Position numbers and translations under genes: made by a program
NCBI RefSeq assembly: GCF_003991155.1
Contig: NZ_CP031293.1
Origin: Escherichia coli
GTDB lineage: Bacteria; Pseudomonadota; Gammaproteobacteria; Enterobacterales; Enterobacteriaceae
DNA length: 64,000 nt
Direction: 5' to 3' (one strand)
Shown: positions 39,321-64,000 of the stretch, one piece after another
Layout: each line of letters starts with the position of its first letter
Numbering within the stretch: the stretch's first letter is position 1
The notes under the pieces: model-generated
What the model was told of the DNA's origin: nothing
Databases searched by the model: none
The model's input: the letters and a program-made list of their open reading frames with translations, nothing else

Positions 39321-39439
39321 GCTGCTTTCCTTTAAAAAAACTATTTCTAAATCGACATGGGCAGTCGTTCTGTACGCTTTGTTTTGTCAACGAGTTTGAC
39401 TGCCAACACTGCACAGTTTCCCCCCAAAAGATGAAACAT

Positions 39440-39753: not shown

Positions 39754-39800
39754 TTGTCTTGTATTTATTTGTTTTTTAACTTTATTATCAATAAGTTAAA

Positions 39801-42490: not shown

Positions 42491-42510
42491 GGTATAACAG
42501 GTATAAAGGT
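42491..42510. promoter_or_regulatory. Putative NanR operator (tandem GGTATA repeats)
   Basis: GGTATAACAGGTATAAAGGT in the long fimB-nanC intergenic region. Confidence 0.5.
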
Positions 42511-42929
42511 GCACCACGATAGTCAATGAGACTGGGCATCTCGTAATCTATGGCAAACATCACTTCAGTTCTTTCTCATCGGGTGATGAAAACGCACTTC
42601 AGTCAGAAAGGAATATGAAAATGAGATCAACAGACACTCTATTTTATGACTCTGGGTAAAATGAATTGAGTAAGTGATATAGCTTACGAACATTCAAATC
42701 AATTAAACATCAGAATAGATTTTATACTCAGGTATTTAATCTGGCTCTCTGTTTATTTAAATAATGTGGAAAGAGAATTTTCACAGGAGACCTTATACAA
42801 AAAATATAAAATACAGCTACTCGTTGCCAAAGACACTATAAGCCTGGCAAAAAATATTACACAACATAAATGCTAATTGTTTATGCGGGCTTTGTATTGC
42901 TTTCTGTATCCTACAAATGAGTGAAATTT

Positions 42930-44836: not shown

Positions 44837-45823
44837 ATGAACGCAATAATATCGCCCGATTATTACTATGTTCTTACCGTTGCTGGTCAGTCTAATGCCA
44901 TGGCGTATGGCGAAGGACTGCCATTACCGGACAGGGAAGATGCGCCTCATTCCAGAATTAAACAATTAGCGAGATTTGCGCATACGCATCCCGGAGGCCC
45001 GTCATGTCACTTTAACGACATTATTCCACTGACTCACTGCCCACACGATGTTCAGGATATGCAGGGTTATCACCATCCTCTGGCAACGAATCATCAAACA
45101 CAGTACGGCACCGTTGGCCAGGCACTGCATATAGCACGGAAATTACTGCCCTTCATTCCTGATAATGCAGGGATTCTCATCGTTCCGTGTTGCCGTGGCG
45201 GATCGGCTTTTACCGCAGGCAGCGAAGGGACATATTCAGAACGGCACGGAGCCAGCCATGATGCTTGTCGTTGGGGAACGGATACTCCGCTATACCAGGA
45301 TTTAGTCAGCAGAACGCGAGCCGCACTGGCAAAAAATCCGCAGAACAAATTCCTCGGCGTATGCTGGATGCAAGGCGAATTTGACTTAATGACCAGTGAC
45401 TACGCGTCACACCCTCAACACTTTAATCATATGGTTGAAGCCTTTCGTAGGGATCTAAAACAATACCATTCTCAGCTTAATAATATTACTGACGCACCGT
45501 GGTTTTGCGGCGATACCACCTGGTACTGGAAAGAAAAATTCCCTCATGCGTATGAAGCGATTTATGGCAATTATCAAAATAATGTTTTAGCCAATATTAT
45601 TTTCGTCGACTTCCAGCAACAAGGTGAAAGAGGACTGACGAACGCGCCTGATGAAGATCCGGACGATTTAAGCACGGGATATTACGGTTCAGCGTACCGG
45701 TCACCGGAGAACTGGACGACGGCACTGCGAAGCAGTCATTTCAGCGCGGCAGCCCGTCGGGGGATTATTTCTGACAGGTTTGTAGAAGCAATTTTGCGTT
45801 TGTCACATTTTCACAAAGAATAG
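44837..45823 (+). CDS. nanS: 9-O-acetyl-N-acetylneuraminate esterase (SGNH/DUF303)
   Basis: From ATG 44837 (MNAIISPDYYYVLTVAGQSNAMA...); ORF track begins at 44810. Confidence 0.8.
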   Translation: MNAIISPDYYYVLTVAGQSNAMAYGEGLPLPDREDAPHSRIKQLARFAHTHPGGPSCHFNDIIPLTHCPHDVQDMQGYHHPLATNHQTQYGTVGQALHIARKLLPFIPDNAGILIVPCCRGGSAFTAGSEGTYSERHGASHDACRWGTDTPLYQDLVSRTRAALAKNPQNKFLGVCWMQGEFDLMTSDYASHPQHFNHMVEAFRRDLKQYHSQLNNITDAPWFCGDTTWYWKEKFPHAYEAIYGNYQNNVLANIIFVDFQQQGERGLTNAPDEDPDDLSTGYYGSAYRSPENWTTALRSSHFSAAARRGIISDRFVEAILRLSHFHKE

Positions 45824-45872
45824 TACACGCTATTCCTTGTGCAATCAGGCCAACTCGCAATAAAGGCAGCAA

Positions 45873-46567
45873 CTATGCTTGAAGCCCCTTCCCCGCCGGA
45901 TAAATAATATCCTTACGGCAATTGGTAACCGTATAAAAGGCCTGATGTTTTGAACTGCCGTTGACGGAGATGAAGTAATCTGCTTTTTTGGCAGCATCCA
46001 ATAACGCATCAATGGCAACGCGATCATTGTTGAGCTCAATTCATAGCGCTGGATACAATTTCAATAAGGCGTCTTTACCACGTTGCGTGGCATTTTTGTA
46101 ATACTGTAAAACACCCGCTTTTTCCCGCGGAGATTCCGATACAACGGAGACGTTACGCTTGCTGGTATGGTTTCTGTCGGGAGGGTACTACCGATATCCT
46201 TACAAGCGTAGAGCTGTTCCATCATGCGTGCCAACAACAACATACGGATATCCAACCGTTCCCAGCGACGTAGGAACATCTCGCGAATGTTAATCCAGTA
46301 CTGTAGTCGGCGATCGCTATCACCAGATTCACAATCATAAAGAACCTCTGCAATATCAAGAGTATACTTGAGAATTTATGTCGATTCATTTTTCGTGCAC
46401 AACATTTCGATAGCTTCGAGGGCATCATGGTATTCTTTGTGACTGAAGGTCCATGAAAGTAACGTATCGAGAATAATCCCTGTAGTTGCCAAAATGAGTT
46501 GATCACTACACAATGATTTGTTTGTACAGAAGGAACGATTATTATATGTTCTTGTAGGGCAGAGCAC
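45873..46567 (-). pseudogene. Degraded gene remnant (internal stops and one frameshift), possibly yjhR-like
   Basis: Minus-strand translation runs ...SWTFSHKEYHDALEAIEMLCTKNEST-stop-ILKYTLDIAEVLYDCESGDSDRRLQYWINIREMFLRRWERLDIRMLLLARMMEQLYA... then shifts frame to ...YYKNATQRGKDALLKLYPAL-stop-IELNNDRVAIDALLDAAKKADYFISVNGSSKHQAFYTV...; four overlapping short ORFs in the track. Confidence 0.45.
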
Positions 46568-46684
46568 GTTGCTACCGTAACAGCGTTGAAGATAATTTGG
46601 CCGAGACTGTAGTGGCCCAGTTTAAAAGGTAGCAGAATTTTAAAAGTGTCAGGTGCATAGAATTAAAAAAATGGAACTATAAAA

Positions 46685-48418
46685 ATGGAAATCATATTAC
46701 CAAAAAACACCTTATATGACAGAGAGCAAAATGTCTTTTTTGAAAAGGTTACGGCCTTAATTGGCGAAAATGGTGCTGGTAAGTCCTCGATTTTACAATC
46801 CGTATTTATTAACTGTTTAACAAAAAAATATCTACCAGAAACAAAGGTTGTTTGTTTTTCTTCTGGACAAAATGAGAAATACTCAACGTACTTCTCTGAT
46901 TATCTTTCTCATGAAAGGCAAGCAAATAGAGGTCTTAACTTAGATTGTTGTTATTACGATAAATCATGGTCAAAGTTACTAATATTCATATCCACAATTT
47001 GTAAATCAAATGGTCTTGTTAGAAATTTTTTATGTGAGAAAGGCTATATTGATGTATCAGATGATAAAAATGATGATATATCAAGCAAGCTTACATTGAC
47101 GGTCCGAGTAAATTCGGCTTACGTTAATCGAGTAAAAATGGCATTAGCACAAGAAGAACAAGGTATTGAAAATACTTTAAGGTATTCAGCTTATCATAGG
47201 ACTTTAGAAAGTTTCATTAATAATATTGTTAATGCTGATTATGATTTCGAGTCTCCACTTGAAGCTCAAGAGATCTTGCTAACTCATTCAAATTTTTTCA
47301 ATCCATCATTTGAGGAAGCAGAAGATTCCTTTTTTGATCCTATCATAACATTTTTCACTCAAGCAGCAGATAATGATTACTTTATAATAAAACCATCATT
47401 ACAGCTAGAGTTTAAAAATAATATCGAACTGAATGATATTAGTGATGGGGAATATCAAGTACTCTTTTTATACTCTCTGCTTGATATTTTTGATAGTCCT
47501 AATACTTTATTCTTATTAGATGAGATAGATTCCCATTTACATTACAAGAATATTGAGCTCTTATGGCATCGACTACATAGTATTAATGGTTATGCGATAA
47601 CAACCACCCATCTATTAGACTCAATTACAGCTACTGATAATGATTTTAAAAACTTAAAGATTGTTGATAAAGGAAAAATAAAAGAAGATGATAAAATAAA
47701 AACTATAATAGAACGTTTATCTGTCTTGACAAGAATATCAGACGTACAGTTCGAAGTGTGTCGTAAACTAGAAAACATAGTATTGATGGATGATTATAAT
47801 GATTGGACTATTTTTTATGCCTTAGCAAAGAAAAAAGGACTTGATGTATCAAAGTTAGATGGCCTCCATGCAATAAAACAGTCCTCTGGTTACGATAATT
47901 TAAATCAAGAGTTCGCAAAACCAAAAATAGAGTGGATTAATTCGCTTTTAAATGTAAATACTGATAAAAAAGTCAAAAGAATATTCATGATCTGCGACAA
48001 AGATGAGGCTCCAATTACCTATCAGAAAGATGGAGTTCAAGTCAATGGAAGTGAATATTCAAAACATATAGCGAAGTTAGAAAATAAAAACAAAAATAAA
48101 ATATATCTCCTTGCATGGAAAAGAAGAGAAATAAAAAACTACTTACTATCTTATACGGCATTGTCCCATCATGGATTTATCGAGCAAATAAACAATGGAG
48201 ATCTGCCAGCTAACAGTTATTTAAAAGAAAACGATCCTGGAGATAATTCAGCAATTAGCCGGCTTAACGTAAAACATTGCATCACAAAAATAATTGATTC
48301 TGATGGTATAGGATTAGATATATCAAAACTTTACTCATATATAGAACTTATACCACCTGCTGAGATCAGTGAAGATATAGTGAACATGTACAATTTTTTG
48401 GTGGAGAAATTAAAATGA
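46685..48418 (+). CDS. OLD/PARIS-like ABC-type ATPase (AAA_15/21-like) with C-terminal Toprim-like (RloB/DUF4435-like) domain
   Basis: 577 aa; Walker A LIGENGAGKSSIL, Walker B/D-loop LFLLDEIDSHLH, C-terminal DxD-type motif IFMICDKDE; very AT-rich coding sequence; stop overlaps the next gene's start (ATGA). Confidence 0.6.
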   Translation: MEIILPKNTLYDREQNVFFEKVTALIGENGAGKSSILQSVFINCLTKKYLPETKVVCFSSGQNEKYSTYFSDYLSHERQANRGLNLDCCYYDKSWSKLLIFISTICKSNGLVRNFLCEKGYIDVSDDKNDDISSKLTLTVRVNSAYVNRVKMALAQEEQGIENTLRYSAYHRTLESFINNIVNADYDFESPLEAQEILLTHSNFFNPSFEEAEDSFFDPIITFFTQAADNDYFIIKPSLQLEFKNNIELNDISDGEYQVLFLYSLLDIFDSPNTLFLLDEIDSHLHYKNIELLWHRLHSINGYAITTTHLLDSITATDNDFKNLKIVDKGKIKEDDKIKTIIERLSVLTRISDVQFEVCRKLENIVLMDDYNDWTIFYALAKKKGLDVSKLDGLHAIKQSSGYDNLNQEFAKPKIEWINSLLNVNTDKKVKRIFMICDKDEAPITYQKDGVQVNGSEYSKHIAKLENKNKNKIYLLAWKRREIKNYLLSYTALSHHGFIEQINNGDLPANSYLKENDPGDNSAISRLNVKHCITKIIDSDGIGLDISKLYSYIELIPPAEISEDIVNMYNFLVEKLK

Positions 48419-50322
48419 ACACCTCTTTATTTGAAGATCTACTTACACTAATCAAGAAAAAGAGTTCGATAAGGAATACAGAACAAGCAGTAGAGTTAAT
48501 TTCATTATTTATTTTTTTACATTATATAAAATTATATCTTTATGAAAATGATAAAAGATTTTCAGATATAAAAAACATATCAAGCAACAACATTAATGAA
48601 ATTAAATATTATTATCAGCAACTATATGAAAGTTTTATTTTCTCGATAGATATAAAAAATATAAACCACGACATGCTTGAAAAGCTCAGGAGTAAGATAG
48701 GTTTTTTAATTAATAACATCAATGACCATGAAATAATTAAATATATAGATTATTCTATTTCGCAGATACATTCACTTACAGAATTCTATCAATATGCAAA
48801 TTCTTATCAATCTTTAATTCTTAGGATGGTTAATGAATCGGGTCGTTCAGGTGAATATGTTACTCCATCTGCTTTAGTTCAGCTCATGGTTGAAATGTTA
48901 TCACCTACAGATGGCACATCAATCTACGACCCCGCATGTGGAACTGGGGGTTTATTAATAGAGTCAGCACGATATATTAAAGGCAACAGTTTAAACAAAA
49001 ACTTAAATTTAAATTATTCCCTTATTGGTAATGACACATCATCATTTGCCTGTCTAATCTCAATTGTTAACCTTTTAATCAATAAAGAATTTAATTTTGA
49101 AATAATACTAAAAGATAGCTTAGATATAAATTATAAGAATACAAAATATGACTTTATTTTAACTAACCCACCATTTGGGAAAAAGAGCGGTTGGGATAAT
49201 ATTCATATTGACACACATTATAAAGGACCTAATCTAGACTATTACTTCCTGGAGCATGTTATTGACTCTCTCGCTGTTAATGGCAAAGCAGCCATAATAT
49301 TACCAGAGCGTTTTTTATATGATGTGAGTAAAGAGTGCATCACTCTTAAAGATAAGATCTTCCAAAATTATAATTTAGATTGTATTTTATCTATACCGTC
49401 AGGTGCATTGCTTCCTTACACTGCAGTAAAATTATGTATTCTTTTTATAAGTAATCCTGGCCCAACAGATAGAATATTTTTCTACAATTTAAATAATGGT
49501 GAAAAATACTCACGTACAAATATTATAAAATTCGATGATTTTATAGATTTTTTAGAGTCAGCAAAAAATAGAACAATAACTGAACACTCCTGGATTATCA
49601 ATATTAGTGATACACCTTCATCTTATAACTTACTCTTAAAAGATAAAGAGCGAAACTCATATGAGTTTCTTAGTGATTCTATAGTTAACATTGAACAGAC
49701 AATACGTAATAATGAATTATTACTAACAGAGTTGTCTTTATTAAGAGAAAAAATAGCAATCTTAGAGTCAACAATAAAAAATCATTCGCATGAATATGAA
49801 TTTGAGAGACTTAAAGTTGGAAATATTGCAATAGTAAAATCCGGAAATTTATTACAAAAAAACAGGCTGTTACCCACTGGACCAATTCCTGTATACGGTG
49901 GAAATGGAGTTATTGGATATAACAATGAGGCAATGGTAAATGGTGAAAATATTATTATTGGTAAGGTCGGAGCTCTTTGCGGAAACGTTCGGTATGTTCA
50001 AGGTGATATTTGGGTGACAAATAACTCATTAATTATTAAGAATTATTTACCAAATAAAGTTTTAACACCCTACCTTGCAAAGTTATTATCTACTTTAAAC
50101 TTAAGAAAGCTCGCCGTTGGTACCGCTCAACAATATTTAACCACAACACAAATAAAAAATGTAGAAATTAGCATTCCACCTTTAACGACCCAGCATAAAT
50201 TAAATATGTGGCTTGATGAGTTAGATAATACCCTTGAACAATATAATAAGCTCATTGAAAAAATAATGAATGATAAGCGAGAACTTAAAGAGAATTTGTA
50301 TAAAGGTCTTTTAATAGAATAG
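48415..50322 (+). CDS. HsdM-like N6-adenine DNA methyltransferase fused to one HsdS-type target-recognition domain (M-S fusion)
   Basis: 635 aa; motif X EYVTP, motif I DPACGTGG, motif IV TNPPFG; C-terminal ~180 aa resemble a single TRD plus HsdS conserved helix (KVGNIAIVKSGN ... VTNNSLIIKN ... TTQHKLNMWLDELD); AT-rich; translationally coupled to the upstream gene. Confidence 0.7.
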   Translation: MNTSLFEDLLTLIKKKSSIRNTEQAVELISLFIFLHYIKLYLYENDKRFSDIKNISSNNINEIKYYYQQLYESFIFSIDIKNINHDMLEKLRSKIGFLINNINDHEIIKYIDYSISQIHSLTEFYQYANSYQSLILRMVNESGRSGEYVTPSALVQLMVEMLSPTDGTSIYDPACGTGGLLIESARYIKGNSLNKNLNLNYSLIGNDTSSFACLISIVNLLINKEFNFEIILKDSLDINYKNTKYDFILTNPPFGKKSGWDNIHIDTHYKGPNLDYYFLEHVIDSLAVNGKAAIILPERFLYDVSKECITLKDKIFQNYNLDCILSIPSGALLPYTAVKLCILFISNPGPTDRIFFYNLNNGEKYSRTNIIKFDDFIDFLESAKNRTITEHSWIINISDTPSSYNLLLKDKERNSYEFLSDSIVNIEQTIRNNELLLTELSLLREKIAILESTIKNHSHEYEFERLKVGNIAIVKSGNLLQKNRLLPTGPIPVYGGNGVIGYNNEAMVNGENIIIGKVGALCGNVRYVQGDIWVTNNSLIIKNYLPNKVLTPYLAKLLSTLNLRKLAVGTAQQYLTTTQIKNVEISIPPLTTQHKLNMWLDELDNTLEQYNKLIEKIMNDKRELKENLYKGLLIE

Positions 50323-50330
50323 ATCACAAT

Positions 50331-50357
50331 AGCAGGGTGTCCATAAAACACCCTGCT
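50331..50357. terminator. Hairpin between the convergent M-S fusion gene and hsdR
   Basis: AGCAGGGTG-TCCATAAAA-CACCCTGCT stem-loop. Confidence 0.45.
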
Positions 50358-50402
50358 ACTGGTTGCAAGTAAGTTGCAATATCTGTACTGCTGAAGCTAC
50401 TA

Positions 50403-53400
50403 TTAATAATGCTCCTCAATATACCCATACGCCTTCTGGAACAACTCTTTATCTTTCCCTAGTCCAAACTGGGCCAAGGTCAGTAAAAGCGCCTTTTGGA
50501 TTTCGCGCGGGCCACTGTTGGAATTTTGCCAGCCATCAAAGCGGGTAGCTTTCACAATTTTATCAATTTGCTCTACAACATCACCGATTAACTTAGGGGT
50601 AGTTTCCGGACGTGTTTCGAGGAAAAGCTTAGTCAACGCCTGTTTATTATCAGCTTCAGTTACTGGGCGCTCGCCCGTTTCGCGCTCGGCTTGAACGGTA
50701 TCTTTCGCTGCATCCAACAGGCCTTTCAACCAGTCAATGGCCTTGATAACACCAGCTTCATAGTCCTGACGCAGTTTTTCAAGGCGCTCGCCCAATGCCA
50801 CAAATTTAGGATCATGACTGCCGCGCAAACGTCCCATAAGATCAATCTCCAGGCGTTTGGCACGTTGTTCCTGCTCTTTAGCGGTCAGGGTAAAAATAGC
50901 GTGCTCGTCCATAACCAACTCGTCAATATCATCGCGAATACGATTGATATCAGTATGCTCATGGATCATCTTGATTGTTTCGGGGCCAAGGGCAGCCCAA
51001 ACAAGCGCACCTGTCTGCCCTACCGGACGCACCGATTCATAAATTTGCGCCAGCCATTTATAGTCCTGACGATAAGAGGTCAAAAAAGGATCTGGGTTGA
51101 TAGCTGACCATAACTTGGATAACACACCAAAGCTGGCAGCGAATTCATCGCGTTTCTCGTTGGTCGGCAGGCATTCCTGCGCGGCCATAATACCTTCAAA
51201 ACCAGCTATGGACCGATCCACACCAGGGAAGAAGGACAAACATTTATTCAGTTGTAACGGCAATAGCTCTTTAAATGCCTCAATTCCCTCTACAACTCCT
51301 TCAATTTCTTCAGGGTTATAGGCCAGAGCGGTACGCAGATTTTCGAAAACGCCGAGGTAGTCGATAATTAATCCCATGTCCTTGCGTACAGTATCGGTTT
51401 CGTACAACCGGTTGGTTCGGCACATGGCCTGAAGAAGAGTATGATCGCGTAGAGGCTTATCGAGGTACATGCAGTAGCAAATCGGGGCATCAAAACCCGT
51501 AAGCAGCTTGGCGGTTACGATAATAAGCTGTAATGGATGTTCAGGATCTTTAAAGCATTCAATCAGATCCTTTTGCACCTGTTCTTCGGCATCAATGTGC
51601 TGCCAGCGTTCAAAATCGACTTGTTTGACTGGCAGCTCCAACTCATCATGCCATTTAAGCCAATCCTTGTTGAGCTTGTCTTTTTTGCCACCCTCTTCAA
51701 CTTTAACCGGAGCCTGGTCAACGTTCATAACCACTTCAACCGCATCAAAACCAAGCTTTTCACCGAGCAAATAATACATCTGCACACAGGCTTCGCGATC
51801 GTATACCACAACCATGCCTTTCATCTTTTTCGGCATAACATGGTTGGTAAAATGCTCAGCAATATCATTACTCACCGCAGCCATACGCCTAGGGGATTTC
51901 AGCATGATTGCCAGCTTGCCTGCACGCCTGGACAATGCTGCTTTTTCTTCTTCATCCAGGTTGTTTTCGGTAGCCAGTTGCTCGAACTCTTCATTGATGG
52001 CATCACGATCCACTCGGAGTTCAGCCAGCCGAGGTTCGAACTTCACCGGGTTAGTTGCGCCATCCCGGATCGACTGCTTATAGCTATAGCGGCTCATATA
52101 GCGACCTGGATCTTCTTCGGCACCGAACAATTTGAACGTATTACGATCAATGCCAGAAATCGGAGTACCAGTCAGGCCATAGAAGTGGGCATTGGGCAAC
52201 GCCCAGCGCATTTTCTCGCCTAATCCCCCTTCCTGTGTACGGTGAGCTTCGTCAACCAACACAATGATATTGTCCCGGTTGTTCAGGCCATTAGGGTTGC
52301 TATCGTCAATTTCGATATCTTTAAATTTAAAGATGGTGGTGATTAAAATGCCACGGCTGTCTTGTTCTATGTATTCACCCAACTTTTTGCAGCTTTGCAC
52401 TTTAATCAGATTCTTAACGTCGGCTCCGCCAAAGGTCTCGTTAATTTGGCTGTCCAGATCTCGCCGGTCCACAACGATAAGTACCGTCGGGTTTTTTAAC
52501 GCATTATCGGCACGTAGCATTTTGGCGGCGTAAAGCATCAACAAGGATTTACCCGATCCCTGGAAATGCCAAATAAGACCTTTTTTTGGATAGCCTCTGC
52601 GAACACGCTCAACAATTTGTTTTGCAGCTTCAAATTGCGGATAACGCGGCAGGATTTTAACGCGTTTAGGTGGAGTATTTTTGCCCGTTTTGACGGTTGA
52701 AAATAATGCAAAAGATTCAAGTAACTGCAATAAGGTTTGTGGATTTAACAAACTCTCACAGCTGTTGAGTACCGATGCTAATCCCGGCAGAATTTCATCA
52801 CGAAGCTCAGTATTATGCCAGGGCCCCCAGTCTTTAACTCTGGCATTAATGGCACCATAGGCAAAGGTTTTTCCTTCGCTGGCAAAGCACAGCAAGTTAG
52901 GTACAAAGAAAGATTCAACATTTTTCCAGTAGTACTTTTTGCCACCCATGAAATCGGCAGCACCGTCTTGCCAGGTCACGCTGGGGCGTGTTGCGGTTTT
53001 AACTTCGCCCACTACTAGCGGTATGCCGTTCACATAAAGAACAATATCAAAATAGACTTCAGTGGCCGCGATATAGCGAACCTGCTGCGCCACCACAAAG
53101 TGGTTGTTCTCTATATTGTCAAAATCAATCAGATTGATGGTGATATGGTCGCCATTCTTACCAAAAGGCAAGGTTTTGTCGGCCATCAACCATTCCTGGA
53201 AGTTTTCATTGGCCTTTACCAAGCCGGTATGGCGGGCTTCTAAAACCACTCCTCGCAGTTTGTAAATGACCTCATCGGCATAGTCAGGCTGTCTGCCGAT
53301 ATCAGGGTTTAACGAACAAAGCGCGTCTTTTAGCCACTCATCAACGAAGATATCCTGCGCTTGTTTAGGCAGGTTTTCACCGTGGCAGTAAGTCCACTTG

Positions 53401-53465
53401 ACTCCGCTTAAACCTTTTAAACGGTCGATAATTCCATTTTCTGTGACGGTTTGTTCGTTAAACAA
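50403..53465 (-). CDS. hsdR: Type I restriction enzyme R subunit
   Basis: 1020 aa; SF2 helicase motifs (GSGKSLLMLYAA Walker A, VLVDEAHRTQ DEAH box); last gene of a tightly packed four-gene operon. Confidence 0.9.
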   Translation of the reverse strand: MFNEQTVTENGIIDRLKGLSGVKWTYCHGENLPKQAQDIFVDEWLKDALCSLNPDIGRQPDYADEVIYKLRGVVLEARHTGLVKANENFQEWLMADKTLPFGKNGDHITINLIDFDNIENNHFVVAQQVRYIAATEVYFDIVLYVNGIPLVVGEVKTATRPSVTWQDGAADFMGGKKYYWKNVESFFVPNLLCFASEGKTFAYGAINARVKDWGPWHNTELRDEILPGLASVLNSCESLLNPQTLLQLLESFALFSTVKTGKNTPPKRVKILPRYPQFEAAKQIVERVRRGYPKKGLIWHFQGSGKSLLMLYAAKMLRADNALKNPTVLIVVDRRDLDSQINETFGGADVKNLIKVQSCKKLGEYIEQDSRGILITTIFKFKDIEIDDSNPNGLNNRDNIIVLVDEAHRTQEGGLGEKMRWALPNAHFYGLTGTPISGIDRNTFKLFGAEEDPGRYMSRYSYKQSIRDGATNPVKFEPRLAELRVDRDAINEEFEQLATENNLDEEEKAALSRRAGKLAIMLKSPRRMAAVSNDIAEHFTNHVMPKKMKGMVVVYDREACVQMYYLLGEKLGFDAVEVVMNVDQAPVKVEEGGKKDKLNKDWLKWHDELELPVKQVDFERWQHIDAEEQVQKDLIECFKDPEHPLQLIIVTAKLLTGFDAPICYCMYLDKPLRDHTLLQAMCRTNRLYETDTVRKDMGLIIDYLGVFENLRTALAYNPEEIEGVVEGIEAFKELLPLQLNKCLSFFPGVDRSIAGFEGIMAAQECLPTNEKRDEFAASFGVLSKLWSAINPDPFLTSYRQDYKWLAQIYESVRPVGQTGALVWAALGPETIKMIHEHTDINRIRDDIDELVMDEHAIFTLTAKEQEQRAKRLEIDLMGRLRGSHDPKFVALGERLEKLRQDYEAGVIKAIDWLKGLLDAAKDTVQAERETGERPVTEADNKQALTKLFLETRPETTPKLIGDVVEQIDKIVKATRFDGWQNSNSGPREIQKALLLTLAQFGLGKDKELFQKAYGYIEEHY

Positions 53466-53466
53466 T

Positions 53467-54633
53467 TTATTGTCCCCTCAGAAGAATATTCAAATAACTG
53501 GACTTGAGTTTACGAATTTTTTGAAGCCTTGATTTAGCTTCTCTATAACTGTTTTCGGCTAAATGTAATATATCCTTATATTTCCCAAGCTCTCTTGATG
53601 GTGGTATAACCATCTTCTGAGAATGTACATCGGCATCATTAACAGCCGGGAAACTTGTACCAACTGCCAAATTGGTTAATGAATAAGTGAATTGCTTCGA
53701 CAAAGTGAAATAATAAATAAAATCGGACAAATCATTTTTTGCCCTTAGAACAGTAAAACCTGTTGATGCTATTGAATCATTCAATATTTCAGACACATAA
53801 AACGTAGCTCTATGATTGGGTCTAACAGTGCTAACAACAATATCTTTTTCCTTAAGAATACGCCGAGCTCGGCTGGGGGCTTCAGCGAAATGGTATTCTT
53901 TAGGAGTATCGACAAAACCAGGAAAAGTCACTGAAGATATATCTATATACCTAATCAGCTTATTTTTATTGGCATCATTACTTAACAAGTCAAAATTAAT
54001 ATTTGATACATCCTTCAATCTAACTTTGTTATATCCAAATGGCAGTTTTTCTTTTCGATCAAATGTAGTCAACCGATCAATTAATCTTTGAAATAAATTT
54101 AATGCAGACCTTTCAGTCTCATTTGCACAATGTAATACTTGTTCGATTTTTTTTAAAGAATTTAAAAAATCAACTTGCAGATCCATTTCAGGAATAATAA
54201 ATTCCTGCTGACTTAAAACTTTCCATTTTATCGTTGGAGACAATGACCCCTCCGAAATTGCTACTGCACGATTCATGAAAGTATCAGACTGCATAATAAA
54301 GGGTAAAAACTCAGGTATTACAGTATTTGAATTTGCCTCCAGAACCATGGCATGAGCCGAACAGATACAATCCCAATCTGCTACCGCGACTTTACGTTGA
54401 TAAGCACGACGCTTACCAAAAATAATCTGGCCTTTTTTCACTAAAAGCTTCTGCCCTTCAACGTCACTGGGTGTACCATGACGTTTGATTTTCAGGCTGT
54501 CAGGGTCTAAATGCTCCAAACCGACATAAATTTCAAGGTCTGTCTCGCTCGGTTCCACTCGTTTAGAGATATGTTTAGCGATATCGCCAAACTTCACCAT
54601 TTGCCAGCCTTCAGGTAATTGCTGTTCTGTCAT
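53467..54633 (-). CDS. hsdS: Type I R-M specificity subunit (two TRDs)
   Basis: 388 aa with two TRD-like halves separated by a conserved central region; AT-rich; abuts hsdM2 and hsdR. Confidence 0.85.
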   Translation of the reverse strand: MTEQQLPEGWQMVKFGDIAKHISKRVEPSETDLEIYVGLEHLDPDSLKIKRHGTPSDVEGQKLLVKKGQIIFGKRRAYQRKVAVADWDCICSAHAMVLEANSNTVIPEFLPFIMQSDTFMNRAVAISEGSLSPTIKWKVLSQQEFIIPEMDLQVDFLNSLKKIEQVLHCANETERSALNLFQRLIDRLTTFDRKEKLPFGYNKVRLKDVSNINFDLLSNDANKNKLIRYIDISSVTFPGFVDTPKEYHFAEAPSRARRILKEKDIVVSTVRPNHRATFYVSEILNDSIASTGFTVLRAKNDLSDFIYYFTLSKQFTYSLTNLAVGTSFPAVNDADVHSQKMVIPPSRELGKYKDILHLAENSYREAKSRLQKIRKLKSSYLNILLRGQ

Positions 54634-56133
54634 TTACTGCTCCACCTTGCTTTCAACGTTATATCCAAGCTCTGCAAGGCTCTGGAATAATTTATTAGTT
54701 TGCTTTTTCAACTGAGTACGGCTTACTTTCCACGCTTCAATCGCATGTTCAATATTATGTACTTCAGCGTTGTTTTGTGCTTGCACATACAGTGGAATTG
54801 AAAGGTTATAAAGGTTTTCTTTAATAGCTTCAATATTCACTAAAGAGGTTATATCGTTTTTTTTCTCCGGATTAAAATAAGCCTCGCATAATACCTCCAA
54901 ATCCTCATCGGATAAGCGACTATGAGCGCGTTCACGGGTAACATGCTCAACCCCGTTGATAAATAACACTTTATTTTTGCGTTCGGCAGGTTTATTGCAA
55001 TTAAGCACCACCACACAAGATTCCATCGGCGAGTTATAAAACAGATTTGGTCCCAAACCAATCACCGCTTCAATAATGTCCGATTCAATCACCTGTTTAC
55101 GAATGGCCTGCTCAGAATCACGGAACAGCACACCGTGTGGCCAGAGCATAGCAGCACGACCGGTATCGGGTTTTAAACTTTTAATTATATGGGTATAAAA
55201 AGCATAATCAGCGCAGCCCTGCGGTGGGACACCATAAAGATTTCGACCATACGGATCAGCAGCAAACTTGTCACGATTCCATTTTTTAATGGAGTACGGT
55301 GGGTTGGCAAAAATCACATCAAACTGCTTGAGCCGATCGTTTTCAATAAACTTTGGCTCAGCCAAAGTATCACCACGCAGCACATCAAACTCTTCAATAT
55401 CGTGCAGGAACATATTCATACGGGCGATTGCGGATGTCAGCAGGTTCACTTCCTGACCATAAAGGTGCACAGAGCGCCACTCTTCCCCTCTAGCACGCAG
55501 ATCCATCACTGCATTTAGCAACATCCCACCTGTGCCACACGTTGGATCATAGGCGGTTTCACCCGGTTTTAAGCCCATAATGCGCGTCATTAAATGCACG
55601 ACTGTTCGGTTGGTGTAGAACTCTGCTGCCGTATGACCGGAATCATCAGCGAACTTTTTAATCAGGTATTCGTAGGCCTCACCAAGATCATCCTGAGCGA
55701 CAGATTTAATGCCTAGCGGAATTTGACTGAAATGTTCAATCAGATCAGCCAGCAGATGATCGGGCAGGCGCTCTTTATTGGTCCACTGCGCATCACCGAA
55801 GACGCCATGTAAACGCGGATTATTGGCTTCAATTAGTCGAAGCGCATTCTGGATCGCTTCACCAATGTTTTTACTGGTATTGCGTACCTTTTCCCAACTG
55901 GCTTCAGAGGGAATGTTGAAACGGTGAAACATCGGCATGGCGGCATATTCAGCATCACCTTCATGGAGTTCCAGCGCTTCGTTATATTCTTCCAGATAGA
56001 CATCTGACAGGCGTTTGTAAAACAGCAACGGGAAGATATACTGCTTGTAGTCTGATGCGTCAATTTGGCCACGAAGAAATTCGGCGGCTCCCCAGAGCAG
56101 CTCTTCCAGCTTTTTATTACTCATAGTACTCAT
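54634..56133 (-). CDS. hsdM: Type I R-M methyltransferase subunit, paralogue 2 (motif X variant FYTNR)
   Basis: 499 aa; HsdM_N (DASDYKQYIFPLLFYKRLSDVY), DPTCGTGG, ANPPYS; start overlaps the stop of the upstream hsdM paralogue (ATGA). Confidence 0.85.
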   Translation of the reverse strand: MSTMSNKKLEELLWGAAEFLRGQIDASDYKQYIFPLLFYKRLSDVYLEEYNEALELHEGDAEYAAMPMFHRFNIPSEASWEKVRNTSKNIGEAIQNALRLIEANNPRLHGVFGDAQWTNKERLPDHLLADLIEHFSQIPLGIKSVAQDDLGEAYEYLIKKFADDSGHTAAEFYTNRTVVHLMTRIMGLKPGETAYDPTCGTGGMLLNAVMDLRARGEEWRSVHLYGQEVNLLTSAIARMNMFLHDIEEFDVLRGDTLAEPKFIENDRLKQFDVIFANPPYSIKKWNRDKFAADPYGRNLYGVPPQGCADYAFYTHIIKSLKPDTGRAAMLWPHGVLFRDSEQAIRKQVIESDIIEAVIGLGPNLFYNSPMESCVVVLNCNKPAERKNKVLFINGVEHVTRERAHSRLSDEDLEVLCEAYFNPEKKNDITSLVNIEAIKENLYNLSIPLYVQAQNNAEVHNIEHAIEAWKVSRTQLKKQTNKLFQSLAELGYNVESKVEQ

Positions 56134-57629
56134 ACCTCGAAACCTTCTTTGATAAGCAGGGCCTCCAGCTCCTCTTCTGCTTTTTCCAGCTCAGCCAGCT
56201 TCCGTTGAAAATCTTTGAGCGCCTCTTCCACAGTGATGGTTTCTTCTTCGAGTGGCTTTTGCACATAACGAGCAATATTTAGATTGAAGTCATTTTCTTC
56301 AATCTCCTTCAGAGAAACCCAGCGTGCAACGCCTTCGATTTCTTTTGCATCTGGCCCTTGTTGCGCCTGGTCATGATAGATTTGGTATATTTCATCGGCC
56401 TGCTTGTTGGACAGCGTATTCTGCGCACGTCCCTTGGTATAGATTTCTTCAGCATTGATGATCAATACATGATCTTTATGCGCGGCCGGACGTGATTTAC
56501 GCAGCACCAAAATACACGCAGGAATCCCAGTCCCATAGAACAGGTTGGAAGCAACACCAATAATCGCCACAATGCGATTCTCTTGCAGTAATTTGGTTCG
56601 AATTGCCCCCTCTGCGCCGCCACGAAACAGCACACCATGAGGTAATACGACTGCCATACGTCCATTGTCGTTAAGTGAAGCAAACATATGCTGCACCCAG
56701 GCAAAATCACCATTTGTTTTAGGCGCCAGGCCATATTGCTTACGGCCATAGGGATCGTTCGACCACAGATCGTATCCCCATTCTTTTAAGCTAAATGGTG
56801 GGTTGGCAACAACGCAGTCAAAGGTTTCTAAACGATCGCTTTTTAAAAATTTAGGTTCGCGTAAAGTATCCCCTCGGACAATATCGAAATCTTCCTGTCC
56901 ATGCAGGAACAGATTCATACGCGCAATAGCTTCCGTCGTTAAGTTCTTTTCCTGACCCTTGATTTTTAGTAAACGCGGATCACCACCATTTTCTTTTACA
57001 TGGTGGATGGTCTCAAGCAGCATACCACCGGTACCACAGGCGGGATCGTAGACACTCTCACCGGCTTTTGGATCAAGAATGTTAACCATCAAACGAACGA
57101 TAGTTCGTGGGGTATAGAACTCACCGGCTTTCTTATTGGCTTTGTCTGCAAAGCGTTTGATCAGATACTCGTATGCGCGCCCCATATCATCGTCACGGAC
57201 ACTAGAAACGCCAAGGTTCACCTTATTGAAGTGATTGAGTAACGTAGCCAGTAACTCATCAGAAAGGCGTTCTTTATTGGTCCAGCTGGCATCGCCAAAA
57301 ATGCCATGCAGTTTAGGGTTTGCCAGTTCTATACCACGGAAGGACTCTTTTAAAGCCTGACCGATGTCCTTGGTCTCAGCGAAAACATCGCGCCAGTGGC
57401 AATTTTCAGGTATCTGAATACGGTGAAACATCTTGCCCTTGGCAAGCTCTGCATCCCCAATGCTCTCCATCGCATCGGCAAATTCTTCGTCATACACGTC
57501 ACAAATGCGCTTGAAGAACAGGATGGGGAAAATGTACGTTTTGTAATCTGACGCATCAATGGGCCCTGTAATAATATGGGCTGCATGCCATAGATGGGCC
57601 TCGAGATCTTTTAGGTTAATCAGTGTCAT
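56130..57629 (-). CDS. hsdM: Type I R-M methyltransferase subunit, paralogue 1
   Basis: 499 aa from ATG 57629 (MTLINLKDLEAHLW...); DASDYKTYIFPILFFKRICDVY, GEFYTPR, DPACGTGG, ANPPFS; ORF track extends to 57731. Confidence 0.85.
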   Translation of the reverse strand: MTLINLKDLEAHLWHAAHIITGPIDASDYKTYIFPILFFKRICDVYDEEFADAMESIGDAELAKGKMFHRIQIPENCHWRDVFAETKDIGQALKESFRGIELANPKLHGIFGDASWTNKERLSDELLATLLNHFNKVNLGVSSVRDDDMGRAYEYLIKRFADKANKKAGEFYTPRTIVRLMVNILDPKAGESVYDPACGTGGMLLETIHHVKENGGDPRLLKIKGQEKNLTTEAIARMNLFLHGQEDFDIVRGDTLREPKFLKSDRLETFDCVVANPPFSLKEWGYDLWSNDPYGRKQYGLAPKTNGDFAWVQHMFASLNDNGRMAVVLPHGVLFRGGAEGAIRTKLLQENRIVAIIGVASNLFYGTGIPACILVLRKSRPAAHKDHVLIINAEEIYTKGRAQNTLSNKQADEIYQIYHDQAQQGPDAKEIEGVARWVSLKEIEENDFNLNIARYVQKPLEEETITVEEALKDFQRKLAELEKAEEELEALLIKEGFEV

Positions 57630-57872
57630 TGTTGTCTCTTTTCGATCCTGCAGTGCTTGAACTCTCAGCAACTCATGGATTTCACAGTAAAAAAGCAAGT
57701 AAAGCGATTCCACAACCACCTGAGCGTTCAATATGTATGACGCCTTTACCCAAGTTGCTTAAATCAAGGAAATTGCCAGAGATAATACTCTGGCATCAGA
57801 ATGATACCAAGTTGAAGGGCTGATTTCCGCATCAATACCTTGTGGTAATAGGGGATTACTCTTTTACCCTTA

Positions 57873-58910
57873 TTGGCGCAAAATGGCGGCATTTCCTCAT
57901 TTCTCCATCGGAGCATCTTACGCGCTATAACCACTCTCGTTTTTTCCTATTCCCATGCAGATGAAGCACTACGCAATGAACTTGAGAAGCATCTCTCCCC
58001 GCTGAAGCGAACCGGGAAGATCACAACATGGCACGATCGCCGCATCGTTCCTGGTCAGGAGTTCGAACGTCAGATCGACCACTATTTTTCGCAAGCAGAT
58101 ATCATCCTGATCCTGATCAGCAGTGACTTTATTGCTTCTGATTACTGCTATCAGGTAGAGATGAAAAACGCACTGGAACGGCATAACCGGGGCGAGGCAG
58201 TGGTCATTCCGGTAATTTTAAGAGACTGTGCATGGCATCAGTTAGAATTCGGCAGCATTATGGCGGCGACTATCGACGGTAAACCCATCACTAAGTTTGC
58301 CACCCACGATGAAGGCTACGTTCAGGTCGTCGAGGCTGTCTCGCGTGCCATTGCCCGGATGGAAGCCAAAAAACCACAGCAAACCATACATATCCCTTCA
58401 CCGGCTCCGGCGAATCCGATCTTTCAGGGAGTAGATTCCGTTTTTACACCGCGTTCAAGCAACCTTACTCTACCCAAGAAATTTACCGATCTGGATAAAG
58501 ATCGTGCCAGACGTGAGGGCTTTGAATATGTTGCCCGCTATTTTGAAAATTCGTTAGATGAACTCAAAAAGCGCCACCCCGGATTAGATATCGATTTTAA
58601 TCGGCTTGATACAGATTCATTCACCTGTGCCGTGTATATCAATGGCAGTAAGGTCGGCCAATGTGGCATCTGGCGAGGCAATCAACATCATGGAATGGGA
58701 GATATCTGTTATAGCCAGGATAATGTTGTTCGAAACAGTATTAACGAAACTCTAAGCCTTGCTGATAACGGCCAGACTCTTGGTTTTCGTGCTCTGATGG
58801 GAGGCTTCAGTCGAGGAACTTCACGAGACGAACTATTGACCAATGAAGGTATGTCGGAACATCTCTGGGAAATGTTCTTCGGGCTAATCAAGCAAAGAAT
58901 GTCCCGATAA
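57873..58910 (+). CDS. TIR-domain protein with uncharacterised C-terminal domain
   Basis: 345 aa; N-terminal ~150 aa show bacterial TIR pattern (VFSYSHADEALRNELEKHL ... ADIILILISSDFIASDYCYQVEMKNALERH); remaining ~190 aa not recognised. Confidence 0.65.
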   Translation: MAQNGGISSFLHRSILRAITTLVFSYSHADEALRNELEKHLSPLKRTGKITTWHDRRIVPGQEFERQIDHYFSQADIILILISSDFIASDYCYQVEMKNALERHNRGEAVVIPVILRDCAWHQLEFGSIMAATIDGKPITKFATHDEGYVQVVEAVSRAIARMEAKKPQQTIHIPSPAPANPIFQGVDSVFTPRSSNLTLPKKFTDLDKDRARREGFEYVARYFENSLDELKKRHPGLDIDFNRLDTDSFTCAVYINGSKVGQCGIWRGNQHHGMGDICYSQDNVVRNSINETLSLADNGQTLGFRALMGGFSRGTSRDELLTNEGMSEHLWEMFFGLIKQRMSR

Positions 58911-59094
58911 TTTGCCATATCACAGTCGGGCATACTGCCCGATTTTTGTGCTGTCATTATTGGCAATATCTCAATAGGCGTTGAGAAATGGTGCAATTTA
59001 ATCTTGCCAGAGCGCTGTTACTTGGGGACGAAATTAATGGGCTCCTGCTGTAGTTACAGCAACGCCTGTAAATACAAAAATAGGCGTTGCAAAT

Positions 59095-60150
59095 TCATGC
59101 TGGCAAATACGTTTTCTTAAGCGGCACCAATAGCTTAGTCTCTATATCCACTTGCTCATAGTTTTCAACTAACGCGCGTACCAAATCATCCAGCGTCCAT
59201 AGCGTCAACGGGATTGTAGAACGATCGGCCTCATAACGCGCATCCTTGCTGAATCCGCCGGTACTGACATACAGCCCGCGATCGTCTTTATGGCGGCCAC
59301 CGATAAAGCTACGGATTTGCTGGCTGCTCATCTGTTCCCGCCGGTGCTTCACCTCAACAATAATGCGCGGATTTTCAAACCCAAATCCGTCAGGCGAAGC
59401 AATGATGTCTTTCCCACGGTCAGCACCCGCAGGCGATACCTGAGTTTTATATCCCATGCTGCGTAACACGCCAGCGACCAGATTCTGCATCTCATCCCAG
59501 TCGAGACGGTTGATACGATCCTTGATGCCTTCAAAAGCGATCATTTCCATGTCGCGCAGAGGATTAGAAACGACCTCATCCTCTTCACCTGAAACAGGTA
59601 CTTCCGGCACGATATCTGAGACAGGCTTATTGCCCTGCACTAATTCATTCACAGCAAAATCAGGCACCTGAAAAACTGTCAGCGTTGAACCAAGGGTGTT
59701 TCTAGTTGCATCACTCAGACTATCGCGCTTAATCTCTTCCGCATTCCACTTCACTTTACGGGCGATGCCCATGCCATCTTCAAGCCACTCGGCATGAAAC
59801 TCAAAATCTGACGCTATTTTCCCTATTAAATAGGTCCGATTAGAAGGTGAATAAGTGATAGCCCAGTCGCCTTTCTGCATTTCATTCACAAAGCGCCAGA
59901 CCTGAGAAGCTCCAGAACGAACTGTGCCTGGCTTAGTCTGTGGCTCAAGCTCCTGATACCGGGTAAACAACTGCTCTCTTGAGCATCCAGGTTTCACATA
60001 GGGAGCGAGCTGCGACCAACCAATTGCAACAACCTGTTTGTCTCTGAAGTCGTCGTACAATTTTCCGCCATCACCGCGGATCATCCACATCTTAGTCGCC
60101 ACAATAATTCCTTCTGAAAATACTTCATCGTTATACCGGGACGTGATCAT
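59095..60150 (-). CDS. Putative modification-dependent restriction endonuclease: PUA/EVE-like N-terminal domain fused to Mrr-type catalytic domain
   Basis: C-terminus has the Mrr core (GADRGKDIIAS ... IIVEVKHRRE ... YVSTGGFS); N-terminus has EVE-like pattern (VWRFVNEMQKGDWAITYS ... YLIGKIA); ATG 60150 has SD AAGGTGG (ORF track starts at 60183). Confidence 0.6.
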   Translation of the reverse strand: MITSRYNDEVFSEGIIVATKMWMIRGDGGKLYDDFRDKQVVAIGWSQLAPYVKPGCSREQLFTRYQELEPQTKPGTVRSGASQVWRFVNEMQKGDWAITYSPSNRTYLIGKIASDFEFHAEWLEDGMGIARKVKWNAEEIKRDSLSDATRNTLGSTLTVFQVPDFAVNELVQGNKPVSDIVPEVPVSGEEDEVVSNPLRDMEMIAFEGIKDRINRLDWDEMQNLVAGVLRSMGYKTQVSPAGADRGKDIIASPDGFGFENPRIIVEVKHRREQMSSQQIRSFIGGRHKDDRGLYVSTGGFSKDARYEADRSTIPLTLWTLDDLVRALVENYEQVDIETKLLVPLKKTYLPA

Positions 60151-60212
60151 TCCATTCAGCCACCTTATCCAGGGGAAAAACACCGATAAGATGGCTAATC
60201 AAAATGTCTGTT

Positions 60213-63200
60213 CTAAACCTGACGCCTATCAAGACTATTATAAATAGCCTCAATCTCACCTTTCAGGTTATCACCAGAGTAAACCATCGATGTATCGTAT
60301 CGTTCATATCGCGCTTCCCGTGTCGCACTAAACCAGTTGAACGATCCCACGCATAGCAAACCATCATCACCAATAACAATTTTGCTATGAACACGGTTTA
60401 CCAGCTTTGTAGCAATACCCAGCGCATTCAGTTTCTCCAGCGCCGCTTTAAGGTTCTGCTGCTTCTCTTTTCGCTTCTCAAAATCTTTATGTTCAGTGTT
60501 GTAGCTTCTGTCAGTGACTATCGTGACGTTAATACCACGTGAACACGCCGCAATCATGGAATCAAGAAAACCCGTTTGCTCCAGCTTTTGCCAGGTCAGC
60601 CATGGAGAAACTATCGTGATGTGTTTATCGGTATTTTCAAACGTCTGATTCAGGAAGTTATCATGCTGCTCCACACCATGAAGTGTGTAGATTTTGGTCT
60701 CGGAAGTTTTTAAATCCTTACGCTCTTTATAATCAAAAGAGAGCGCATTCTTCTCGAACTCAAAGAGATATTTTGCCAGCAATCCTCGCGGAGATGAGGG
60801 AGCCTGGATCTCAAACAGATCCATATCGCCGAAGACCAGGAAGCTATCCTTCGCACGGGAGACTGCAACATTCAGCATGCTGTTATCGCTATCAATAAAC
60901 CCGCCGTCTTCATGTTTTGAATAGACTGGCGAGAATATAACAATCGCTCTTTCCGCTCCCTGAAGAGAGTGCACGGTGCCCACTGTGAGCGACTTTTCAT
61001 TCGCGCCCGTACTGATACCTTGTTTACCCAGCGCCTGTTTTATAGTGGATACCTGCGCGCTAAAAGGCGTCACGATACCGACAACTTCATGAAGCGATTT
61101 GCCGTAATGCGCTTCAATATTTTGCTGGTTCTCTGCCAACCAGGCCGCTATCGTTTCAGCCTCAAGCAAATTATATCTACTTCCACTACTTGCCTGCTCT
61201 CCTTTACCATCAATATGGAGATAACCCATTGCGGGCATTAAATTGCTCTCTTCACGCCCTCTTTTAGGCAACAACTTACCGTGATAGCAGAGCGTATTAC
61301 AGTATCCAATAATATTATCGAAGCACCGGCGGTGTTCATATAGGTACATACCACGAGCCAGTTCGGGATCATATTGATAGCGCGAAGCAAACTGCGCTAT
61401 TTTCATAACGCTGCCAGATGCGGCACTTTTACCAAGGTCTGCGATTGCCGTATATTTCTCGGTAATCTCTTCTTGCGTACTGCCAGACAGAATTTTTTCC
61501 GCCAGCATGTTACCGACATCAATCGCGGGAGCAATACTCCATATTGGCGGGATCTGCTCCGTATCGCCAATCACTAATGCCTTCTTAGCTAATGCAAACG
61601 AGGCAGCAGCCACTTCAGGAAGCACCTGCCCGGCTTCATCGACAATGAGTAAATCGGCAAAATCATACAAATAACTTTTCTCGAATTTACGTTGTCCTTT
61701 GTGCTCACTTATCTGCATATTGCCGGGCAGCATATAGCATGTCATCACCACACATGGAGTGAGTTTCATTCGACGTTGCCAACGGGCGGTTACCCCTTTA
61801 GCGCCTTGTTTCTTCTTCTCTTCCTGCAGATCATCAATTCTGGCCATATCCATCAGCCAACGACCTTCCCAGTAGTGAGTCGTCAGTAAAAATGCAGGGA
61901 AGCGAATCTGCGTATCAGCCAGTTCATCGGCCTGTGAGAAGCTCAGTTCCTCGTCGCCCTCATACCCTAAATCAAATGCCAGCCTCTGCCACTCCTGAAC
62001 CGCCTGCTGTTCTTTAAGAACGATTTCATGGGCGGAGTCAATCTGCTGCCGGTATGTTGTTTGCTCGCGCTCAGCGGAATTGAGCAGCCCATCAATATTA
62101 CGTTCGATAGTTTCAGGATCAGACCACTGATTTCCTGCAATCAGCGCGCCTAATTTATCTTCGAGAAACAGCTGTATTTGGTACTGTCGCTTATTGCGAA
62201 CCGCCGGGAGCCAGGAAAATAATGAATAGATCAGTGATTCACCGGCGCGATATTTTTTCCATTCCGTTTTAGCACTCTTCAGTAGAGTGACTTTTTGTTC
62301 TTGTCCGGAAAGTAATTTATTTAAATTATCGAGATATTGCTCAATATCATTAGCAATAAGCTCACGCGCAGCCCGAATCTGGCTTAACATTTGCCATGTT
62401 GCGTTCAGTCTTATCAGTTGCTCGGATTTTGCTGCCAACTGACCATGCAGGAGTTCAATGATCTTTTCAGGGGATGAACACTCTTTTTCAGGAAAGGCTG
62501 CCTTAGCCTTCTCCAGATAAAACAGCAGTGCATCCTCTACATACTCTTTTGACTCAACCTGGGTGAAGAAATCTTCAGTTTGATATTTTTTGGCTGCCTC
62601 AGCTTTACGAGTGCTTGAGGGAAAATAAGCGCCGAAGCTTTTCAGCTCTGGCAACCATCGTCCGGCCATCGCACCTGAACCTTGCGAAAAGTCTTTCCCG
62701 AATGCCTCAATAATGTTCGTTACAGCCTGGTTATTCGTTGAAGTCGCGATAATAACCGGAGGCTCAGATTTTTCGAGAGCTGCTCTGGCCCACTGCGTGG
62801 CGATGATAGAAAGCACCAGCGTGGTTTTTCCGGTTCCCGGAGGTCCATTAACAGCAAGGATATCGCCATGTCTTGCATCCAGAAAATGGCTTAAGGCATC
62901 GCGCTGAGCCTTTGCCAGCGGAAACTTATCTCCGGAGTGTCCAAGCCTGTCGCTGAATTTTGCTCCTGGGGCCAGCAAAGACTCTGCAGCATGAACCTCT
63001 CGCGAGGCGAAGCGATTGAAGAGCGGCACATCCTTCTTGCAAACAAGCAGGTGATCATAAAGAGAAAGGATATGGAAACTGGCACCGCCAGATTGCGCCG
63101 TTTTAACAATATAACCGTGCTCAGCGAGTACATATTGCTCAGGATTTTTAATCCAGTCGCCGGCAACATTCTTCAGCAGCCTCTCTGAATCATCCAGATA

Positions 63201-63728
63201 TTGACGCCACTCCTGCTGCAAGGCTGCATATCGTGCTTCCCGTTCTTCATCCGTTTCGGCAGTCTTATCAATGCTGTCATCAAAGTTGATAGAGAACGAG
63301 GTATGGATTGTCTTGTATTTGTCATACTGCCCAATATCACCAATCGAAAATGCTCCTTTTGGCAAAGGTTCAAGCAGGTCTCTGGGAATGGAGGTCGCTG
63401 GCGTCGGATATAAAAAACCCTCACGGCTTAGCAAGGCTGGCGTCACTAGCGGGGTAACAATATCAGGTGCGCCTGCGGAACGGTCCTTACCATGCTGCAG
63501 TAACCGAAAATAAACTTTTGGGCGCAAGACGACATCGACCGTTTCGACATCGTCTTTTTCTCCCTCAAAAAATTTACTGACAATCGCTTCGTCAAGACGT
63601 CCCGCCGCTATCCCATGCCAGTGAGTGAAATTTTTGGCGTCTTTCCGTTCAAAACTGCCCTTTCCTGACTCAGCATCTGCAAGCGAGTTGCGCCAGTATG
63701 AGGCAAACCCTAAAGCATTTTCATCCAT
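60213..63728 (-). CDS. SF1 (Upf1/Dna2-like) helicase fused to C-terminal PLD-family nuclease; type II Mokosh-like
   Basis: 1171 aa; Walker [14 protein letters not shown], Walker [11 protein letters not shown], helicase C-terminal motifs ([17 protein letters not shown]), PLD HxK(x)4D motif [21 protein letters not shown]. Confidence 0.7.
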
Positions 63729-64000
63729 TACCAGTCCTATGACTCAATGAAATCCATTGATTTATCGAATATAAAATCACCGTATGGATAACTATTGTCC
63801 ACGTTGAAAGGCTGGCTGCAATGTTTTGTTCACGCTTCGATACAAATACTCAGGTTATACGGAGTTCAGAAAACGACCATATCATGTTGCATGGCACATA
63901 AAAGCTTTATAACCGAAGCAGCAAAGGATTACCGGCTGCGCAGCACGCCCCGAAAGCCCGTGAGCCCTGCTGGACAGCGTTCAGTGCAATATTGGAGCCT

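Follow-up and report, generated by a model that had tools for sequence, protein, structure and literature searches.

The window analysed here is a 64,000-nucleotide stretch of the Escherichia coli contig NZ_CP031293.1 (RefSeq assembly GCF_003991155.1). Its positions 45802-64000 very probably form the nanS-side 18.2 kb of an integrase-free defence island of ~19.6-19.8 kb that fills the nanS–leuX interval, hotspot #37 of E. coli. The island is a mosaic of modules that are distributed independently of one another. A preliminary description of this DNA, made from its letters and open reading frames, had proposed that defence genes are packed downstream of nanS; the reading frames lie where it placed them, their domains are assigned by Pfam, PADLOC and NCBIfam, and each intact island gene scores on some defence-family model in PADLOC. 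Judged from these assignments, the island would confer layered anti-phage and anti-plasmid immunity, the putative layers being two systems that tell self from non-self by methylation, a modified-DNA reader, a helicase-nuclease and a TIR effector.

At least 80% of 45824-64000 is carried by 100 of 5,426 complete E. coli genomes (1.9%). Most E. coli therefore do not have this content, and the region is accessory rather than core, as first proposed; depending on the count, carriers number only 100-102 of the 5,426. Other strains hold other cargo between nanS and leuX, namely DISARM, Dnd/Dpt or the genes found in K-12. Upstream, fimE, fimB, nanC, nanM and nanS are as in K-12 with the orientation reversed, and nanS itself (44837-45823, plus strand, from the RefSeq annotation of an identical genome) forms the core flank of the island.

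The locus has been described before. Hochhauser et al. 2023 (PLoS Genet 19:e1010694) define hotspot #37 by its flanks, nanS and yjgB with tRNA-Leu-CAA. They find it occupied in 462 of 475 genomes and seemingly devoted to defence, with 31 types of system and no detectable mobile element in 68% of cases; the tables of the study record Mokosh II, type I restriction–modification (R-M) and Dpd at this site. A 2025 review in EcoSal Plus (PMC12707154) repeats these points about the hotspot and names leuX as its anchor. The island studied here shares the nanS flank, the leuX/ahr flank, the variable occupancy, the presence of type I R-M, Mokosh II and Dpd, and the usual lack of a mobile element. It shows no difference in kind and is one occupancy variant, present in ~1.9% of complete genomes and not singled out in the text consulted of the 2023 study. 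Since the locus is the described hotspot, the finding of the preliminary description, its question of mobilization included, is a rediscovery and already known in kind.

K-12 carries a different occupant, KpLE2 / PR-Y (leuX-intB ... yjhR-nanS), which sits in the same chromosomal interval and also contains decayed defence genes, with intB a pseudogene. It differs in consisting of ~40 kb of mostly metabolic and insertion-sequence content (fec, sgc and yjh genes), and it shares no DNA with the window past 45801. The present island serves as a worked example of turnover, in which a Dpd scar and a truncated integrase stand beside intact systems that are found elsewhere as separate cassettes. Its less ordinary parts are a pair formed by an ATPase and a methyltransferase-specificity (M·S) fusion, and a type I R-M variant with two HsdM proteins. 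Neither is named in the libraries searched, and either could widen what counts as a restriction-modification system.

Boundaries and mobility of the island

A probe spanning the end of nanS matches 5,018 genomes, and the match ends at window position 45801 in all but 102 of them. The left junction lies at 45801/45802, 22 bp inside nanS, and is identical among all carriers. At the end of nanS, after which a change of sequence character had been noticed from the letters alone, ~4,900 of ~5,000 nanS-bearing genomes lose homology exactly at 45801. The final 22 bp of nanS (45802-45823) come from the island allele, so that the C terminus of NanS is altered and slightly longer, ending in ILRLSHFHKE before the stop codon in the window versus ILQFWRER in K-12.

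On the other side, the right boundary had been placed beyond the window, and it is found there. The remainder of the island begins at 63729-64000, past MkoC (the helicase-nuclease), and continues for a further ~1.7 kb; in genomes with an identical island it ends at leuX. In genomes identical or nearly identical over the island (among them locus L001, 33178-34841), the order past MkoC is a gene for a 125-amino-acid RNase H-like protein, an HNH_2 endonuclease gene, a short 5' remnant of an integrase, leuX and ahr. The complete island also lies between nanS and leuX in strains OkiPb01695 and ST70, with leuX directly adjacent. Of the integrase, ~110 bp of the 5' part survive next to leuX, where the annotation gives a DUF4102 pseudogene. 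This remnant shows 71% identity to the leuX-intB region of K-12 and 85% to the 5' end of an intact integrase in another strain.

Further searches for traces of integration were negative. No tRNA or Rfam family and no long terminal repeat was found within 38000-64000, and the repeat of the leuX 3' end, sought near nanS, gave no match at 43 nt or at 23 nt (up to three mismatches) anywhere in the window. The preliminary description had recognized no integrase and left the mobilization mechanism unclear; we likewise find no working recombinase that belongs to the island, which agrees with the published picture of the locus. On our reading, the island would now be immobile by itself.

One could instead suppose that the island is one integrative element that has remained mobile, with an integrase just past the window, and that it excises whole from leuX. 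This reading draws on the genome of AR Bank #0349 (100% identical), where a tyrosine integrase is found ~1.8 kb past the window end together with a 43-nt direct repeat of leuX. The perfect 43-nt repeat pair, however, brackets a separate 12.4 kb element that lies between the island and the intact leuX, and this element occurs in 2 of 5,426 genomes against 100 for the island. In other carriers leuX follows the island directly, in PCN033 the slot is taken by a CP4-like island, nothing like a leuX repeat lies near nanS, and the island's own integrase amounts to the ~110 bp stub only. We consider such a mobile element extremely improbable and retain the integrase-free island. The 12.4 kb element (locus L001, 34799-47223) encodes a tyrosine integrase, a Dit-like tail protein and a resolvase; the integrase gene lies at the end away from the intact tRNA.

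Modular composition and history

At the left junction, a decayed gene had been reported. The minus strand of 45873-46489 does encode a single protein broken by two in-frame stops and one frameshift, as had been described, and belongs to a dpdD 3' remnant at 45802-46510 (minus strand) that we traced from its translations. Once joined, the translation aligns with the C-terminal ~200 residues of DpdD (PADLOC DpdD, 3.9e-50; NCBIfam NF041061, 2.1e-30, covering positions 496-697 of a 704-position profile). The remnant measures ~0.7 kb and lacks the first ~495 codons; the intact dpdA-K cluster is not present, and just this 3' end is left of Dpd, a system of 7-deazaguanine DNA modification and restriction. 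By blastn at low stringency, the stub is confined to the 102 island-bearing genomes, and the same search, used to look for an intact progenitor, returned those carriers only. A protein search for the progenitor gave fragments and one 250-amino-acid protein at 63% identity, with no intact close relative. The Salmonella copy of the adjoining block starts exactly at window position 46511. Because the stub is found in carriers only and the Salmonella block begins immediately beyond it, we regard the dpdD stub as a separate, older layer that was overwritten by the present cargo.

The other modules also occur apart. The MkoC module (60148-63874) is found alone in ~800 genomes, often beside an intact integrase. 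Strain HB-Coli0 has kept the half made up of Mrr, MkoC, HNH and leuX and carries DISARM in place of the left half, a replacement that puts a recombination point between the TIR and Mrr genes, near window position 59052. The replacing segment (locus L018, 1-8808) is a four-gene DISARM-like cluster of DUF499, DUF3780, DUF1156 and PLD proteins. In strain Combat13F7, the two-hsdM cassette stands directly next to a leuX integrase, and the block from the ATPase gene to the TIR gene is common to Salmonella at 87-93% identity. Between two carriers, identity across the island is 96-99.7% (hsdS and hsdM-b having recombined) versus 98.2-98.6% in the flanks. OkiPb01695 (locus L028), at ~98% identity, was left out as a measure of divergence; its assembly has frameshifts in many genes of the region (fimC and the ATPase, M·S, TIR and MkoC genes), for which sequencing error is a more likely source than biology.

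A history that would yield this arrangement begins with repeated insertion of integrase-bearing islands at leuX. Deletions and recombination between islands would then have replaced cargo and stripped the integrase, and the present block would travel only along with its flanks, either by descent or by exchange between strains through homologous recombination in nanS/fim and leuX/ahr.

The region might, on another account, be ancestral or core to E. coli and have been lost from most strains rather than acquired. The divergence of the island among carriers does resemble that of the flanks, and the junctions are the same in all carriers, both as this account would have it. Only 1.9% of genomes carry the region, however; its GC content is heterogeneous (29-49%), its modules turn up in different surroundings and, at 87-93% identity, in other genera, and the dpdD scar and integrase stub mark earlier occupants. 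Loss of an ancestral region is very unlikely on this evidence, and a mosaic assembled at leuX is preferred.

Several points nevertheless weigh against the mosaic island as we present it. Its right boundary comes from genomes that share an identical 33 kb with the window, which itself ends earlier. With divergence in the island close to that of the flanks, vertical inheritance with loss and co-transfer with the flanks are indistinguishable, and the order of historical events is drawn from present-day mosaics only. Nor are all modules maintained, as the TIR gene has a ~230 bp deletion (58473-58702) in the carriers ST70 and PCN033.

Two methylation-linked operons

The first operon of the intact cargo, on the plus strand, comprises a gene for a 577-amino-acid OLD-like ABC ATPase with a Toprim-like C-terminal domain (46685-48418; AAA_21/SMC_N in Pfam and PADLOC) and the gene for the M·S protein (48415-50322), the two overlapping by 4 nt. 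The M·S protein joins an N6-adenine methyltransferase to a single target-recognition domain (TRD; Pfam N6_Mtase 5.2e-42, Methylase_S 9.9e-18) and displays DPACGTGG and NPPF motifs. The N-terminal part of the ATPase is of the OLD-type ABC class. For its C-terminal part, the Toprim label of the preliminary description has moderate structural support and none from Pfam: the predicted structure of the domain resembles the Toprim domains of AriB and OLD, and Pfam yields no Toprim match in the protein. An invariant C-D-x-D-x-A motif is present, and an acidic D-D-x-N-D stretch occupies the expected position of the Toprim glutamate. Neither PADLOC 2.0, which gave no full-length match to AriA, GajA or PtuA (best 53 bits), nor NCBIfam 2026 has a full-length model for the ATPase, and the latter has none for the M·S protein either.

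The ATPase belongs to a family that spans the Gammaproteobacteria at 53-89% identity, and in five of five contexts examined a gene for an N6-adenine methylase directly follows it. This methylase takes the form of an M·S fusion in E. coli, Salmonella, Raoultella and Acinetobacter (the most distant of these); in a Pseudomonas-type subfamily it is a separate hsdM and hsdS within a type I operon. The ATPase gene usually stands beside a type I hsdR, and in the Pseudomonas-type subfamily it lies between hsdR and hsdM, a placing similar to that of prrC within EcoprrI.

In recent comparative work, OLD-type ABC ATPases combined with a Toprim or another nuclease are described as backup effectors on BREX and R-M-like systems. 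For guardians of restriction, the paradigms that have been tested are PrrC and PARIS. The operon resembles PARIS, Gabija and PrrC in its ABC ATPase head and, as for prrC, in its physical tie to type I components. It differs from them in having no separate AriB, no GajB UvrD-like helicase and no anticodon-nuclease domain, and in that the partner is a methyltransferase-specificity fusion. We tentatively raise the possibility, which we hold at rather less than even chances, that the pair is an uncharacterised, methylation-linked immune module of two genes. It may be a restriction system in which an OLD-like ATPase-Toprim nuclease takes the place of HsdR; alternatively, it may act as a guardian in the manner of PrrC and PARIS, firing once anti-restriction proteins block its methylase partner.

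The second operon (50403-57629) is tightly packed on the minus strand and encodes a type I R-M system in the order hsdM-a, hsdM-b, hsdS, hsdR. The intact hsdR (50403-53465) has both nuclease and motor domains (HSDR_N, SWI2_SNF2 and T1R_D3-like in Pfam; PADLOC REase_I, 2.7e-110), and the closest solved relative of its product is the HsdR of EcoR124I (8e-28). Next come hsdS (53467-54633; Pfam; PADLOC Specificity_I, 8.9e-203), with two TRDs, and the two methylase paralogues, hsdM-b (54634-56133, NPPY motif) and hsdM-a (56130-57629, NPPF motif), each recognized by HsdM_N and N6_Mtase in Pfam and by PADLOC. The operon thus shares with the canonical systems EcoKI and EcoR124I an hsdM-hsdS-hsdR organization and all standard domains. 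Canonical systems, however, use one hsdM for both M subunits, and here two HsdM paralogues stand in tandem; these are 46% identical, and both retain intact catalytic motifs.

The two-hsdM arrangement recurs in Salmonella and in E. coli Combat13F7, with hsdM-a 98% identical in both. The HTH-M-M-S-R order reappears, with orthologues position by position, in a metagenomic locus of only 55-58% identity, and a locus related to it carries a single M. The duplication is old and has been maintained, which suggests a heteromeric methylase; the operon may even build one that is obligately heteromeric. A literature search on tandem hsdM paralogues returned nothing beyond unrelated uses of the terms. At two-hsdM loci elsewhere (L016, 11188-14177; L004, 17937-20923; L025, 1497-4435), a small HTH gene precedes the operon; this gene is absent from the window.

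Specificity varies among carriers, and in ST70 one TRD of hsdS has been swapped for another. The segment 53467-56133, which holds hsdS and hsdM-b, is the most divergent both between carriers and against Salmonella (hsdM-b 83-94% identical, hsdM-a 98-99.7%). As read from these alignments, the divergence of hsdS and hsdM-b suggests recombination centred on the specificity gene.

Variation of this kind is also what one would cite if the methylase modules were mainly epigenetic regulators or selfish addiction modules, their clustering being a by-product of a permissive insertion site: type I systems with a variable hsdS can alter methylomes, hsdS and hsdM-b vary among carriers, and decay has affected some modules (TIR, dpdD and, in K-12, MkoC as yjhR). 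Defence models nonetheless match each of the intact genes, defence is what the locus is statistically devoted to throughout the species, and hsdR is intact with its nuclease and motor domains. We hold the regulatory or selfish reading to be decidedly unlikely, and continue with the genes of the island as components of defence.

TIR, Mrr and Mokosh genes, and base composition

The TIR-Y4lF protein (57927-58910, plus strand) has a TIR_2 domain (Pfam, 5e-14) and resembles Thoeris in matching the PADLOC ThsB1 model along its full length (2e-153). Its homologues list PF27176, and the enterobacterial family is very large. We looked for the Thoeris partner ThsA, either as a SIR2 or as a transmembrane effector with a SLOG/Macro sensor, and found none in the island and none next to homologues in six related contexts; one SIR2 protein near a TIR homologue has PDC-S25 as its best model. 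Since ThsA is never adjacent, membership of the gene in a Thoeris system was rejected. Homologues adjoin three different type I operons, and a specific link between TIR and type I R-M was entertained on this ground; it was dropped when wider sampling showed that the cargo beside the gene is sometimes other than R-M, or absent. In several genera, a TIR-Y4lF gene stands where variable defence cargo meets the backbone of a CP4-57-like island (YfjJ, AlpA, GTPase, RadC and CbtA).

On the minus strand at 59095-60084 lies an Mrr-family nuclease gene whose product may have an EVE-like reader domain at its N terminus. The EVE-Mrr label given to it earlier stands firmly for the second half: the Mrr_cat PD-(D/E)xK domain is recovered at 2e-23 (Pfam), and the protein matches the PADLOC candidate PDC-S02 at 1.4e-82. 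The EVE (PUA-like) half is faint, consisting of a single Pfam match below threshold (E = 0.17; 12.3 bits, the cutoff being 23), and the N-terminal domain has no sequence match among solved structures. The nuclease is probably modification-dependent.

The adjoining gene (60213-63728, minus strand) had been listed as helicase-PLD, and rightly so: its 1171-amino-acid product combines a superfamily 1 helicase of COG1112 type with a C-terminal PLD nuclease (AAA_11, AAA_12 and PLDc_2 in Pfam) and is MkoC end to end, the single protein of Mokosh type II (PADLOC MkoC, 1684 bits, positions 1-1169). The K-12 pseudogene yjhR, beside nanS (NC_000913.3 locus, L002, 41016-42032), corresponds to the C-terminal third of MkoC, matching positions 812-1135 of the 1136-position PADLOC model at 3.8e-139. 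K-12 thus also has a Mokosh gene at this hotspot, in truncated form.

The island had further been called AT-rich. This holds for the ATPase gene (30.7% GC), the M·S gene (29.1%) and hsdS (36.3%), and does not hold for the island overall (42.3%), the remaining genes of which have 44.7-49.3% GC. Silencing of the AT-rich segments by H-NS, also proposed in the preliminary description, is a reasonable suggestion on general grounds of H-NS and AT-rich DNA. The interval upstream of the island from fimE/fimB to nanC (39000-42920) is itself 38.5% GC.

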